From Octopus vulgaris (taxonomy: Eukaryota): a DNA stretch of 64,000 nucleotides. Positions within the stretch are counted from its first letter, which is position 1. Each line of letters starts with the position of its first letter. This document shows positions 344 to 47,574 of the stretch, in pieces. The translations under genes and the position numbers were made by a program. The DNA is taken from NCBI GenBank assembly GCA_951406725.2, contig OX597814.1, positions 67,828,001-67,892,000 on the forward strand. The letters are read 5' to 3'. The notes under the pieces were generated by a model. That model saw only the letters and a list, made by a program, of their open reading frames with translations, did not search any database and was not told the origin of the DNA.

Positions 344-423
344 ATATTTATTATTATTATTATTATTATTATTATTATTATTATTATTATTATTATTATT
401 ATTATTATTATTATTATTATTAT
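344..423. repeat. (TTA)n microsatellite
   Basis: Direct reading. Confidence 0.98.
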
Positions 424-837
424 GCCTCTACGTACGTACGTACCTGTTAGTTGAAAGGAAGATGTAAAAAGAGAGAAATAAAACTTAAGCTGAAGAAGTA
501 TAGTTGACGTGAGAGGCAAAGCGATAAAGAGGAGTGAGTAAGAGGCAGTGAGAGAGACAGCGAGAGAGGGGGGAGACTGATAACGTTGAAAGGTTATTGA
601 TAACGAGTTAAACGCAGGAGGACGGTTAGGGGTAAAGAGACACAGAGGAGGGAGAGGAGAGAGAGGGAAGAGAGAGAGAGAGAGAGAGAGAGAGAGAGAG
701 AGTGTGAAAGAAGGGAGTGGATAGAGAATAATAGTGAAAGAGAATGAAACCATTCTTATAGAGAAAATGCAGGAAAACTTTTCGTTTTGGACAATATATG
801 ATTAAGACACTGAAAACATGGAAATTGCAAAATGTTG

Positions 838-1113
838 CATATCTATCTATCTATCTATCTATCTATCTATCTATCTATCTATCTATCTATCTATCTATCT
901 ATCTATCTATCTATCTATCTATCTATCTATCTATCTATATATATATATATATATATATATATATATATAGTTCTTTCTTTCTATCTATTTATCTATCTAT
1001 CTATCTATCTATCTATCTATCTATCTATCTATCTATTTATCTATCGATCGATCAATCTCTCTCTCTCTCTCTCTTATATATATATATATATATATATATA
1101 TATATATATATAT
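838..1113. repeat. Compound (TATC)n/(TA)n/(TC)n microsatellite
   Basis: Direct reading. Confidence 0.98.
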
Positions 1114-1142
1114 ACTTTATTTAAAGCAGCAGAAAATTCAAC

Positions 1143-1189
1143 AAAATCTGTTACTCTGAGTTTCTCGTTGCCGTTCATCAGACAGTTTT
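1143..1189 (-). ncRNA. Minimal type I hammerhead ribozyme
   Basis: Minus strand reads aaaactgt-CTGATGA-acggcaacga-GAAAC-tc-a-ga-GTA-acagatttt: full core, stem I ctgt/acag, tiny stem II, stem III actc/gagt, GUA cleavage triplet. Confidence 0.8.
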
Positions 1190-43321: not shown

Positions 43322-46300
43322 ATGGCAAATCTTAGAATCGGTTGCTTGAATGTGAGAGGCGTCGGGTCACCTTGGAAACAGGGTCACCTGTTAAACGACC
43401 TGAGGTTTCATGATGTGGATGTAGCAGCCATCAGTGAAACCAGGCTCTCCGACCCGCAAGAACTCGCAGCCCTTTTCGGCGGATACGAGATATTTCTATC
43501 TCCGTGTCGGCCGGGAGCGGGCGGTGGTGGTACTGCGGTGTTGTTTCGGAAGGGCCTGGACTTGAAAATAAGGACAGTCTTCTTGGATCCGGAAGGTAAG
43601 TTGGTGGTCCTCGACGTGGACGGTAGTGACGGCGGTGCTTTCAGACTGGTGGCTGCCTACGCTCCGACAGGAGCAGGGCAGTCGGATTATTTCAAACGTC
43701 TGGAAATTTTCCTGGGAACGTCACGCACTCTAGTACTAGTTGGGGATTGGAACGCTGTCTTAGACGAACGTTTCGATCGGGTGGGCAGGGGAGCGTCTGA
43801 AAGGAAAGGGGGAGGGTGCAAGAGCCTCGCCAACCTACTCGGCCGCTTTCAGCTGTCCGACAGGTTTCGACTAGACAACCCGAATGTGCCAATGTGGACT
43901 TGGACCAATCGCATCGGGTCGTCTAGATCGTACTTAGATAGAGTGTTTTGTAGGCCAGCGGATAAGGACAGCGTAGGGTGTCCACAATTCCACCTAGTCG
44001 AATATACGGACCACAAATTAGTGATCTGTACGGTCGACTTAGATAGGCTACATAGACAGGGACCCGGTTACTGGAAGCTGAACGCGTCGTTAACGACGTG
44101 CAAAGCTTACAGAGACCGGATTAGTTTACTAGTTAAGCGGGCGCTCACGGGGGCAATCATCAACAACAACTGGTGGTTTGCCCTCAAGAGAGCAATTAGA
44201 GTAGAGTCAATTAGGTATAGTAAGACTCTAGCTATTGAACGTAGGAAGAGAGAGCGGGATTTAGTTAAGAAACTAGACGAGGCTCTTGAGACTGGCATCG
44301 CGACCGACGTGTTGGCGGCAAGGTTGGCCCTCGACCAACACTTCGACGCCAAACACGTTGGATACTTTGTCAGAGCTAAGGCACGTTCGCTAAGCGGGGA
44401 GGGGACTAGAGCCGCTCGGTGGGCCCGCGTGGCGGAGGCGAAACGAGGCAACAAAGCAACCATTCGGTCTTTGGTGGACCAGAACGGGCGCGAGGTTACC
44501 AAACCGAAGCAGATGTGTACGGTGCTTCAGCGGCACTTTGCTCAACTGTTTGGGACGAACGATGGAACGGACAACGGTGCAGACTTCGGTGTGTACCTGG
44601 ACGGCCTACTGCAACTCTCGGACAGCGAGGCAGAGTGCTGCGAAGGACCGACATCTGCCTGGGAAGTGGGAGAAGCGATGAAGAGTTGCACGAGAGGTAG
44701 ATCACCGGGTTTGGATGGTCTGCCCTACGAGCTTTACTTTTCAATGCCAGACTTGTTTGCGGGCCTGTTGGCAAACGTCTACTGCAACTGGCAGCAAAAC
44801 GGGAGAATTCCTGCTTTTGTCTGTCGAGGGGTGGTGGCTTTGCTGAAGAAGGACCCAAACAAGGGGGACGTTATAGGGAATTTCCGGCCCATCACTCTGC
44901 TCAATGCAGAGTTGAAGATTTTGGCCAAGGTGCTAGCCAAGAGATTGGCGCTTGTCGTGGACAAGCTGGTCGGCGAGACGCAGACATGCGCCGTGCCGAC
45001 CAGGTCGATACACGACAACCTCCATCTCATGCGCTACATCATAGAGAGGGTGGGTAACGACGCTGGCGCGTGTGGGGCTTTGATCAACTTGGATCAGAGT
45101 AAAGCCTTCGATAGGGTCGACCATCGGTACCTGACAGCTGTCCTCAAGGCAGCCGGCTTCGGTCCATTTTCCGCGGGTGGATAGCTGCTTTATACAGCAA
45201 CATCTGCTCGGTGATACGGGTGAACGGTCACCTTTAGGAACCGTTCGGCATCTCACGTTCGGTCCGCCAAGGATGCCCTCTCTACTCCCTCTTGTACATT
45301 TTGACTCTCGAGCCTTTACTGCGCAAGTTGGAGGCTTTGAGGGGTATCCCGCGCGATCTAGGAGGCGGAAACAGCGTGTCTGCCTATGCCGACGACGTCA
45401 CCGTGGTGGTGTCGAGCCACAGGCACATTGGCCTGATTTGCGAGACACTAAACGAGTACGAAGCGGTGACAGGGGCAAAGATTAATGCGGAAAAGTCTGT
45501 GGGCTTGCAACTGGGCACCTGGAGAGGCAAGCCCATGCCGTCCAACAGCGTCGTAGGGCGCTGGACAGACGGACCCATTAAACTGCTCGGGGTCTGGTTC
45601 GGTCCGGACCTCCAGGTGAATAAGAAATGGGAAGAGGTGACGAGCAGGGTGGCACGTCTCACCCAGAAATGGGCCGAGAGGAAGCTGTCCCTGAAAGGTC
45701 GAGCGGAGGTGGCGAATGCGTACATCGCATCCGTCATCTATTACCGCTTGACCGTCGTCTCTTGTCCCGACCGCTGGTTGGCCAAGCTGGTACGTCTGCT
45801 CTTCGACTTTTTGTGGAAGGGTCAGGTGCCACTGGTCAGGCGATCCATCTGCTGTCAACGACCGCTGAACGGAGGCCTTGGAATGCCGTGGTTGCTGTTG
45901 CGCAGACATGCGCTCAGGCTGCGGCATCTCAAGCGCTTCCTAGACGGTGAACAGGTGTGGTCGTCTTTTGTCAGACGCGATTTTCCGCAGCTCGTCTCTT
46001 TGACGGAGCTGCAGACCTGGATCAAACGTAGACCGAGAAAGGGCGCTTGGCACCTCGAGTGCCGTCAAGCTCTCTCCGCACTCCGCCAGGCGGGCAATGC
46101 GATCGGTTACAGCTCCACTCTAGCGTTCTATAGAGGGTTAGTGGAGGAAAAATGCGACGACGTTCTCGGGGAAACTCTAGGCGTTGAAGATGACGAACTG
46201 AGCGGTCTGTTCGGAAGGACTTTTCGCCGGGGCCGATGTATAATTTCCAGAGGCCGCTCGCCTGGCAGTGCTACCGAGGGGCTCTGCCTGTTCGAGATAA

Positions 46301-46751
46301 ACTTTACCGGCACGGAATTGCCGTCAGCCGGGCCTGCCCGAGGTGTTGCCAGGACGACGAAACCGTTCTGCACGCACTCGTCCAGTGCCCGACTATTGCT
46401 GAAATATGGGTTTATGTCGAACAGCTACTGTCACGTGTAGGACGGATCCGACTATCAGCCGAATCCATAGTGAAGATTACCCCGCCGACCTCCTTTAACA
46501 AAGAGGGCGAGGCCGTTTTCTTGTGCCTAGTGGCTGTGGCGAAAGAAGTTCTGTGGTGCACTCGTTTGAAAGGGCTAAAGTCAGACACTTTCCTCTTTGG
46601 TCAAGGCCTCATCAACTTTTTCAAGTTTCACTTGAAAAGGAAGATGAGGTTAGAGAGGAAAGTGCTGTCCGATAGCAAGTTTTATGAAAGGTGGGTGAAT
46701 TGTGCGAGACTGGCCAGTATAAATGGACCAGTTCTCAGGTTTCGCCTGTGA
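43322..46751 (+). pseudogene. ORF2 of copy 2 (APE+RT), frameshifts near 45170 and 46225
   Basis: ORFs 43322-45184, 45292-46440 and 46236-46751 are near-identical to copy 1 ORF2. Confidence 0.92.
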
Positions 46752-47094
46752 TTTGAAAAAGGTAATGTAAAAGGAGAAAAAAGGGACTCTCTACACCCCT
46801 TTTTTGACCAGGCTCCCGTTGGCTTTTGTAGGGTTTTTTCCACCAGGAACCTTTCGAAACGTCTCCCCCTTTTAGGAGTTTTTCATTGTTTTATAATTAT
46901 TGTTATACAGTTTTTTTACTCGATGTTTTTCAAAAACGGACAAAACCCTTTGTAACCTTTCGTCCTGTCTTGTCCCTTCATGTTTCAAATCATGCGTGTT
47001 AGCCCTTGTGGCCAATAAAAAAGATTTTATTATTATTATTATTATTATTATTATTATTATTATTATTATTATTATTATTATTATTATTATTATT

Positions 47095-47308
47095 AAGGTG
47101 GCGAGCTGGCAGATTCGTTAGCACTCCTGGCAAAATGCTTAGCGGCATTTCGTCTGCCGCTACGTTCTGAATTCGAATTCTGCCGAGATCGACTTTGCCT
47201 TTTGTCCTTTCGGGGTCGATAAATTAAGTACCAGTTGGTGCACTGGGGTCGATGTAATCGACAAGCGCTCCCCCCCAATAATCTCACTCCTTGTGCCTGA
47301 AGTAGAAA
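47095..47308 (+). mobile_element. tRNA-derived SINE (aaggcgg-headed family)
   Basis: Follows (TTA)n directly; ends ccttgtgcctgaagtagaa then (TTG/TTA)n. Confidence 0.88.
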
Positions 47309-47574
47309 TTGTTGTTATTATTGTTGTTGTTGTTGTTGTTGTTGTTGTTGTTATTATTATTAGAGTCTTATAGCAAAAACTTTCGTGCCAAAACACTTGC
47401 CAAACAAGTTTGGTAAGTACTGTGTGATGAAACTGTAATGTTTGTAATAATCTCAGCAAATAAAGGCATTATCGAAATTATGCTTTGCTTATTGATTTTA
47501 TCTTCCGTTCGTCAATGAAACATACCCCTCCTCACATTTATGCGTGCATAAGTGTGTTTTTGTGTGTTTGTGTG

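Follow-up and report, generated by a model that had tools for sequence, protein, structure and literature searches.

The stretch of DNA described here, called the window, is the whole of C1:67828001-67892000 (64,000 nucleotides of contig OX597814.1) in the 2.8-Gb genome of Octopus vulgaris. It carries two kinds of long interspersed nuclear element (LINE) embedded in arrays of one trinucleotide repeat, which reads (TTA)n on the plus strand and (TAA)n on the minus strand. One kind is Dong/R4-like, with a restriction-like endonuclease (RLE); the other is Tx1-like, a type with an apurinic/apyrimidinic-type endonuclease (APE). The Dong-like copies are nine segments, all on the minus strand (RT, reverse transcriptase; UTR, untranslated region).

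1-347, minus: Dong-like family B, 5'-truncated; 3' end beyond the window
8483-8858, minus: Dong-like family A, 5'-truncated, 3' end lost
8924-9042, minus: Dong-like family A, 3' UTR only
9130-9916, minus: Dong-like older subfamily, 83-87% identical to young family A copies
10152-11890, minus: Dong-like family A, 5'-truncated
11969-14093, minus: Dong-like older subfamily (~80-83%), 3' end lost
14199-18471, minus: Dong-like family A, full-length, decayed; ~25-bp tandem units at 5' end
30489-31722, minus: young Dong-like family A, 5'-truncated; zinc knuckle and RLE motifs in open frame
31787-33830, minus: Dong-like family B, 5'-truncated; 607-aa open frame with RT end, CCHC and RLE

Each of the nine has (TAA)n on its own strand at the 5' junction. 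Six run at an intact 3' end into (TAA)n inside the window, the copy at 1-347 ends just outside it, also in TAA, and two (8483-8858 and 11969-14093) are without a 3' end, so that the original prediction is borne out both for the strand of all nine copies against (TTA)n and for the tails of those with intact ends. The copies belong to two families, A and B, which are about 50% identical in amino acids, and fall into several age classes: family A copies in the window are 80-100% identical in DNA, and the Dong copies differ by 2-20% and in breakpoint. Both families have, after the RT, the motifs CCHC, RHD, PD..D of the PD-(D/E)xK type and KxxKY. Pfam recognizes RVT_1 and zf-RVT in the Dong-like protein, and the closest solved structures are R2 proteins (E 4.5e-15). 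Named Dong or R4 sequences are absent among the 120 listed homologues, and the clade label refers to motifs and target, not to a tree. Family A starts with a variable count of ~25-bp tandem units, up to about 15 (L257, L270, L261; window 18430-18471), which could be a promoter array like the monomers of mouse L1. No ribozyme was matched by Rfam at the 5' end of the single locus L242, where no dedicated structure search was made. The (TTC)56 run at 15127-15297 was considered as an insertion site and rejected, as it is an expansion within the Dong open reading frame (ORF), that is, a (GAA)56 run of glutamate codons whose counterparts in sister copies are short.

Four Tx1-like copies lie in the same window, all on the plus strand and all ending in (TTA)n.

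18960-20275, plus: old Tx1-like, 5'-truncated, no APE; degenerate TTA/TCA upstream, (TTA)5 tail
21696-25016, plus: old decayed near-full-length Tx1-like; degenerate TTA/TTG upstream; 5' boundary by eye
35961-41209, plus: young Tx1-like, 5'-truncated within ORF1; APE, RT, zinc finger
41229-47026, plus: full-length Tx1-like, frameshifted; ORF1 zinc knuckle; ORF2 with APE from 43322, RT, zinc finger

Four APE-bearing copies had been predicted; strand and tail stand for all of them, but the full APE domain is present in only two, the 21696 copy having a 42-aa piece of it and the 18960 copy none. The copies range from 51 to 93% in amino acid identity, and the two young neighbours are only 92% identical and are therefore separate insertion events. 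Pfam finds Exo_endo_phos, RVT_1 and zf-RVT in the ORFs and, weakly, zf-CCHC (E 0.011), and the APE domain matches L1 EN and APE1. The closest named relative of ORF2 comes from Argonauta hians, an octopod, at 67% identity. These homologues carry no clade names, and a search of longer proteins with the APE domain gave four matches, none informatively named. The elements are called Tx1-like by architecture (zinc knuckle in ORF1; APE, RT and zinc finger in ORF2) and recall, not by a tree.

The arrays between these elements are as follows.

348-423, plus: (TTA)n array
8859-8923, plus: (TTA)n array
9043-9129, plus: (TTA)n array
9917-10151, plus: (TTA)n/(TCA)n array
11891-11956, plus: (TTA)n array, then 13-bp SINE1 head stub 11956-11968
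14094-14198, plus: (TTA)n array
18472-18537, plus: (TTA)n array
18589-18605, plus: single (TAA)5 run (AAT run 18589-18603), polarity exception
25017-25434, plus: compound (TTA)n/(TCA)n/(GTA)n array
30382-30488, plus: (TCA)n/(TTA)n array
31723-31786, plus: (TTA)n array
33832-34082, plus: (TTA)n/(TCA)n array
34421-34528, plus: (TTA)n array
35638-35960, plus: (TTA)n/(TCA)n array
41210-41228, plus: (TTA)6 spacer separating the two young Tx1 copies
47027-47094, plus: (TTA)n array

On the plus strand there are 29 ATT runs of at least five units against one AAT run, all between 350 and 47094, and after merging within 150 bp there are 16 TTA arrays against one TAA. The claim that nearly all long arrays read TTA thus holds for 16 of 17 merged arrays; it does not hold for the AAT run, nor are the arrays independent. 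On our own reading of the layout they form about six nests; the ratio of 29:1 thus makes the polarity look better supported than it is, and its use as independent trials was rejected. Agreement among about six nests has a chance of about 1 in 32 if they are independent, which is unremarkable for a window picked for that agreement. (TTA)n arrays are absent from 47360 to 64000, where (TA)n, (TGTA)n and 15/30-bp minisatellites prevail.

The argument consequently depends on copies elsewhere in the genome. The start of the Tx1 tail, ATT(A/G)ATTATT, is conserved, so the tail is at least partly encoded by the element. A repeat at the 3' end alone proves nothing, and therefore the 5' side is the test, since truncation points cannot carry an element-encoded repeat. 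Window loci were left out of the Tx1, Dong, CR1 and SINE1 junction counts. The Tx1, Dong 5' and CR1 loci were the top 30 of each search, and those for the Dong 3' end and for N560, a short retroposon described below, were the first 30 matches on C1. The background frequency of at least four TTA in 30 bp is 0.5%. For full-length Tx1, 26 of 29 5' ends have at least four TTA within 40 bp and none has TAA. By eye all 29 starts follow some array, one of them (L086) in (TTC)n, and several of these flanks are tails of CR1-like or SINE1 copies (L002, L006, L009, L076). Of 29 loci found by the Tx1 3' end, 13 extend beyond the sequence fetched; in the 16 scored, the truncation point follows TTA or TCA in 10 and never the opposite strand, whereas an upstream array is present in 1 of 28 copies of the CR1 control (Fisher p=3e-5).

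The Dong counts are the mirror image. The 5' ends of full-length Dong follow TAA in 26 of 29 cases, or in 29 of 29 when GAA and TAG variants are included, and the 3' ends lie in TAA in 28 of 30 loci outside the window, the exact 30-base pattern of this end having 7,299 genome matches. Of 30 Dong 3' loci, 10 ran off the fetched stretch and 20 were scored for truncation points: a strict script gave 10/20 TAA (11/20 with variants) and no TTA, and a version chaining over internal deletions gave about 14/20 by eye. Non-repeat 5' flanks or random orientation had been named in advance as the outcome that speaks against the idea; Tx1 and Dong both show array 5' flanks and a fixed strand.

Not every Tx1 relative behaves in this way. 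Relatives with 65-71% C-terminal amino acid identity terminate in long (TATC)n arrays (blocks C18 and C3a, the latter being L116-L120; region names L201-L205 and L176-L180), and some in the sample end in no array, so TTA targeting is limited to some Tx1 families. Furthermore, full-length Tx1 copies form head-to-tail stacks with a period of about 5.87 kb at C4:93.80-93.84 Mb (L362-L364), C5:1.62-1.64 Mb and C1:202.33-202.34 Mb.

Smaller elements share the arrays. N560 is a 559-bp non-coding retroposon (no frame longer than 69 codons in the four copies inspected) of which 5'-truncated copies occur and whose 5' 29-mer has at least 4,802 exact genome matches. It has TAA upstream in 27/30 and downstream in 28/30. 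By target, polarity and 5' truncation it looks like a passenger of Dong, which would mobilize it; its 3' end has no significant match to three window Dong 3' ends, and the partner may be another family. In addition, a non-autonomous Helitron-like family is present. Helitrons are known by a 5' TC, a 3' hairpin followed by CTRR and insertion between A and T; here a 5' TC, a 3' hairpin with CTAG and insertion before T (26 of 30) are found, the 3' 17-mer having 174 exact matches. Unlike Helitrons in general, copies outside the window continue with at least three TTA in 9/28 and with TAA in 0/28; a taste for T-rich downstream sequence alone would be enough to yield this 9:0 split (p=0.004).

25160-25257, plus: N560 3' fragment, reversed relative to its class, no TAA tail, between 15-bp direct repeats
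34529-35637, plus: non-autonomous Helitron-like element, 5' TC, 3' hairpin and CTAG; inserted between array A and T
8466-8482, plus: Helitron-like 3' end (hairpin, then CTAG) in place of the 3' end of Dong 8483

The stretch from 424 to 8482 may be a single large Helitron; its likeness to the Helitron-like element is only patchy. The polarity of the window had been predicted to be strict, and this fails at the N560 fragment, a member of an otherwise TAA-sense class that sits on the plus strand between TTA arrays.

The far side of the array was inspected for 177 element ends, and for 108 of them the small library used gave no match. Among the others, Tx1 is opposed to Dong or N560 across a shared array in 10/10, Dong/N560 pairs point the same way in 33/34 (three of the 33 being duplicate junctions) and Tx1 pairs do so in 11/11 (two duplicates). 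SINE1 is opposed to Dong/N560 in 11/11 and co-oriented with Tx1 in 3/3. A gapped pattern from the Tx1 tail to the reversed N560 tail, too strict for counting, gave one genome match.

The polarity sample was 1.2 Mb outside the window, composed of twenty 50-kb blocks from 18 contigs and 200 kb of flank. There, Dong copies no more than 100 bp from an array are TAA-sense 22:1, N560 within 1 kb is TAA-sense 19:0 and Tx1-like pieces within 1 kb are TTA-sense 9:1. Among 103 pairs of adjacent arrays, the polarity is the same in 18/19 where Dong/Tx1 fill at least half of the gap, in 14/23 where they fill less than half and, where they are absent, in 21/32 of the gaps under 1 kb and in 17/29 of those over 1 kb (for the last, p=0.46; Fisher p=0.007 against 18/19). 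The difference between 18/19 and 17/29, together with the 58:53 orientation of SINE1 more than 100 bp from an array, means that polarity is handed on by nesting, and no regional bias is seen. The 5' and 3' flank counts and these nested gaps also support, for the two LINE classes, the prediction that insertions leave the repeat on both sides and that the clusters feed themselves. Random 50-kb blocks contain single-polarity runs of 11/11, 7/7 and 5/5, and blocks C6, C18 and C2a have a single polarity. Around the window, the TTA run starts near -7.6 kb with one break at -2.7 kb, a TAA-polarized nest lies 89 kb past its right end, and polarity switches within 100 kb on either side.

CR1 and the short interspersed nuclear elements (SINEs) have the tail without the targeting. 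Their copies in the window, with one further short repeat, are the following.

27640-29778, plus: CR1-type LINE, self-made (ATT)5 tail; 5' boundary approximate
20294-20681, plus: two SINE1 copies head to tail (~20294-20437, ~20468-20681)
25455-25679, plus: SINE1, (TTA)5 tail
34083-34420, plus: SINE2, tRNA-like head by eye
47095-47358, plus: SINE1, then (TTG)n/(TTA)n
30170-30381, plus: short repeat; 3' end enters the leftmost array of the last nest

In the CR1 family of the window, 22/29 copies end in ATT repeats, and the single upstream array among 28, far from target specificity, is the tail of another CR1. The CR1 copy at 27640-29778 is likely to be an array seed, not a targeting element. 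Likewise the short repeat at 30170-30381, whose 3' end also precedes the array of locus L062, is likely an array seed. RTE is reportedly another retroposon linked to the birth of microsatellites from tails. Neither an RNA-gene head nor a ribozyme was detected by Rfam in six loci or by ARAGORN in the window. SINE1 heads outside the window have at least four TTA upstream in 3/75 and TAA in none, which is above background (p=0.007) but far under the >20% threshold for target specificity taken from the available text of PMC4494074. The SINEs within arrays had been predicted to lie on the plus strand and to end in (TTA)n; in the window they do so, but genome-wide they are not users of the target. 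By eye, many SINE1 copies have ordinary target duplications beginning with ATT-like bases, and some, like CR1, end in fresh (ATT)n tails at non-repeat sites. Near arrays, within 100 bp, SINE1 is TTA-sense 16:1, as expected if its ATT-type tail grows into an array or pairs with a nicked strand. SINE2 has no array association elsewhere (orientation 18:15). SINE1 as a passenger of the TTA-targeting Tx1 was rejected: subfamily b (L034-L060) has a Tx1-like 3' end, often continuing into a second partial SINE, and 0/30 arrays upstream. The 3' end of a non-array Tx1 relative in block C9 looks, by eye, closer to this subfamily.

Other elements in the window are of different kinds. Two 594-bp direct repeats (4319-4912 and 6454-7047, 99.8% identical) enclose 1.5 kb without a long ORF and are inserted in a Tc1-like transposase remnant (~3922-7890); the pair is a young non-autonomous element of the long terminal repeat type. 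Penelope-like elements occur among (TA)n arrays at 57309-59585 and 2364-3900, one of them with a 691-bp inverted partial copy.

Taken together, we consider it likely, with a probability of about 0.8, that Dong sits in (TAA)n and Tx1 in (TTA)n on their own strands because their unrelated endonucleases nick opposite strands of one repeat. That two endonuclease classes use one repeat from opposite strands, as originally predicted, is supported by the array location and opposed orientation of both LINEs and does not extend to the SINEs. In target-primed reverse transcription, the strand complementary to the sense strand of the element is nicked and primes synthesis on the 3' end of the RNA. On this model the Dong RLE would nick the TTA strand and prime on RNA ending in UAA repeats, and the Tx1 APE would nick the TAA strand and prime on an RNA with AUU repeats at its end. 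The nick positions themselves are unreadable, as tail and target are one repeat. CR1 and some SINE1 copies bring new (ATT)n tails to non-repeat sites, and these tails may seed arrays. Dong, N560 and Tx1 sit inside arrays, with the repeat on both sides even at 5'-truncation points. Each insertion would split an array into two of the same polarity and add its tail, and nests would grow in this way; in one nest copies of many ages are found (Dong 80-100% identical, Tx1 51-93% in amino acids). Single-polarity runs over untargeted DNA would be compatible with chance and require no regional strand bias.

A wider version is doubtful. In it (TTA/TAA)n would be a self-renewing site for three nicking chemistries (Tx1 APE, Dong RLE and Helitron HUH) seeded by CR1 and SINEs, and octopod Tx1 elements would switch among TTA, TATC and TTC mainly by the RNA tail, the RNA picking the target. 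The alternative that survives best, although we hold it to be unlikely, is that tail pairing alone is responsible: the endonucleases would be nonspecific or only weakly AT-preferring, and the AUU or UAA tail of the RNA would set both target and polarity. The 16:1 orientation of SINE1 near arrays and the (TATC)n ends of Tx1 relatives in the same genome agree with it, and annealing of the RNA end to the target has been proposed for SART1 in the available text of PMC7265360. However, the same text reports that swapping the endonuclease domains of SART1 and TRAS1 swaps the target, and CR1 (1/28) and SINE1 (3/75) have ATT-type tails and yet seldom follow arrays. A further determinant is therefore needed, most likely the endonuclease; a matching tail would set the orientation of any retroposon landing in an array without itself conferring targeting.

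A regional strand bias, in which host transcription, replication or selection orients elements and arrays over tens of kb, is very improbable. It would account for the agreement of the window nests and for the single-polarity blocks, but SINE1 more than 100 bp from arrays (58:53) and SINE2 (18:15) show no such orientation, long gaps without Dong/Tx1 are near chance (17/29), and to the left and right of the window the polarity changes in less than 100 kb. Self-made tails combined with tandem duplication or assembly error, by which arrays would be only tails and stacks duplicated blocks, fit the conserved Tx1 tail start and the 99.0-99.7% identity of the C4 stack but are equally improbable and, for the window, largely refuted, because arrays precede 5'-truncation points, the copies in the window have different breakpoints and diverge by 2-20% (Dong) or 8% (young Tx1), and the CR1 control shows what a tail-only pattern looks like (1/28).

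Several observations weigh against opposite-strand nicking as the explanation. Upstream arrays are lacking at 6/16 Tx1 and 9-10/20 Dong truncation points, some of these points reflecting internal deletion or inversion. With the 29 top-scoring Tx1 loci of each search young copies are favoured, and the Dong 3' and N560 loci are confined to the first 14 Mb of C1. Gaps partly filled by Dong/Tx1 and longer than 5 kb have no polarity signal (7/15), and the N560 fragment at 25160-25257 shows that polarity can flip. In the C4 stack the three compared copies, with short TTA spacers and an open 1145-aa ORF2, are so nearly identical that tandem duplication or serial insertion could have produced them. 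Finally, back-to-back (TAA)n(TTA)n arrays occur (C9 at ~32.5 kb, C11 at 27.2-27.4 kb, window -2661 to -2587, L243, L246 and L248), some directly upstream of a truncated N560 or a full-length Dong; they may be fold-backs at the 5' junction or facing tails.

TRAS1 and SART1 are related APE elements of the R1 clade. In Bombyx mori, TRAS1 and SART1 insert in opposite directions in one repeat, (TTAGG)n (PMC7265360), and the octopus likewise has two LINEs in opposite directions in one repeat. Unlike this telomeric pair, in which both are APE elements, the octopus pair joins APE and RLE on a dispersed microsatellite that is likely regenerated by the elements and other retroposons. Dong is described from TAA microsatellites, a snail element included, and Kibi and Koshi from (TC)n and (TTC)n, respectively (PMC3812793), and crocodilian Tx1 families from (TTCC)n/(TTTC)n, as APE-bearing Tx1-clade LINEs in microsatellites (PMC4494074); these two papers confirm that the targeting by Dong, Kibi and Koshi was known, as the prediction had stated. 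PMC3812793 files Dong under APE elements, contrary to PMC3774820, in which Dong is of the R4 lineage with TAA repeats upstream; R4 is counted among the RLE clades (PMC4640811). The octopus elements share with Dong (Bombyx mori Dong, DongAg and the snail DongBg) a single ORF, an RLE and the TAA target, and differ in having at least two families (~50% in amino acids), the N560 passenger, GAA/TAG variants and ~25-bp 5' tandem units. Like Kibi/Koshi and the crocodilian Tx1 elements, the Tx1-like elements are APE-bearing LINEs in microsatellites, locus L086 even in (TTC)n; compared by target only, theirs is (TTA)n, one base from the Koshi unit (26/29 TTA, 1/29 TTC). L1 and Alu tails are known to become microsatellites (PMC3812793), and the octopus arrays similarly are likely to come from untargeted tails, whereas here the tails then serve two targeted LINE classes.

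Dong-R4 and L1-Tx1 families are recently active in an octopus, the Dong-R4 families being abundant as well, according to PMC13282606, whose available text has no word on targets, and the available portions of PMC8967140, PMC9115989, PMC5035012 and PMC8869645 contain nothing on insertion targets. The literature covered (without most subscription papers, Repbase and the supplementary target lists of PMC4494074) yielded no description of a Tx1 that targets (TTA)n, nor of a dispersed microsatellite shared by APE and RLE elements. What appears to be new is the (TTA)n target for Tx1 and the pairing of APE with RLE, within the known habit of repeat-seeking LINEs, and not a new kind of system.

Two endonuclease folds on one 3-bp repeat make a clean pair for asking what sets the target and strand in target-primed retrotransposition, and the same genome supplies the comparisons, namely sister Tx1 elements with other repeats and untargeted CR1 and SINE copies that share the tail. 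(TAA)n microsatellites flanked by elements would make poor markers. In addition, the opposed insertion of Dong and Tx1 suggests how retroelement hot spots could arise and why (TAA)n arrays are abundant in octopods.

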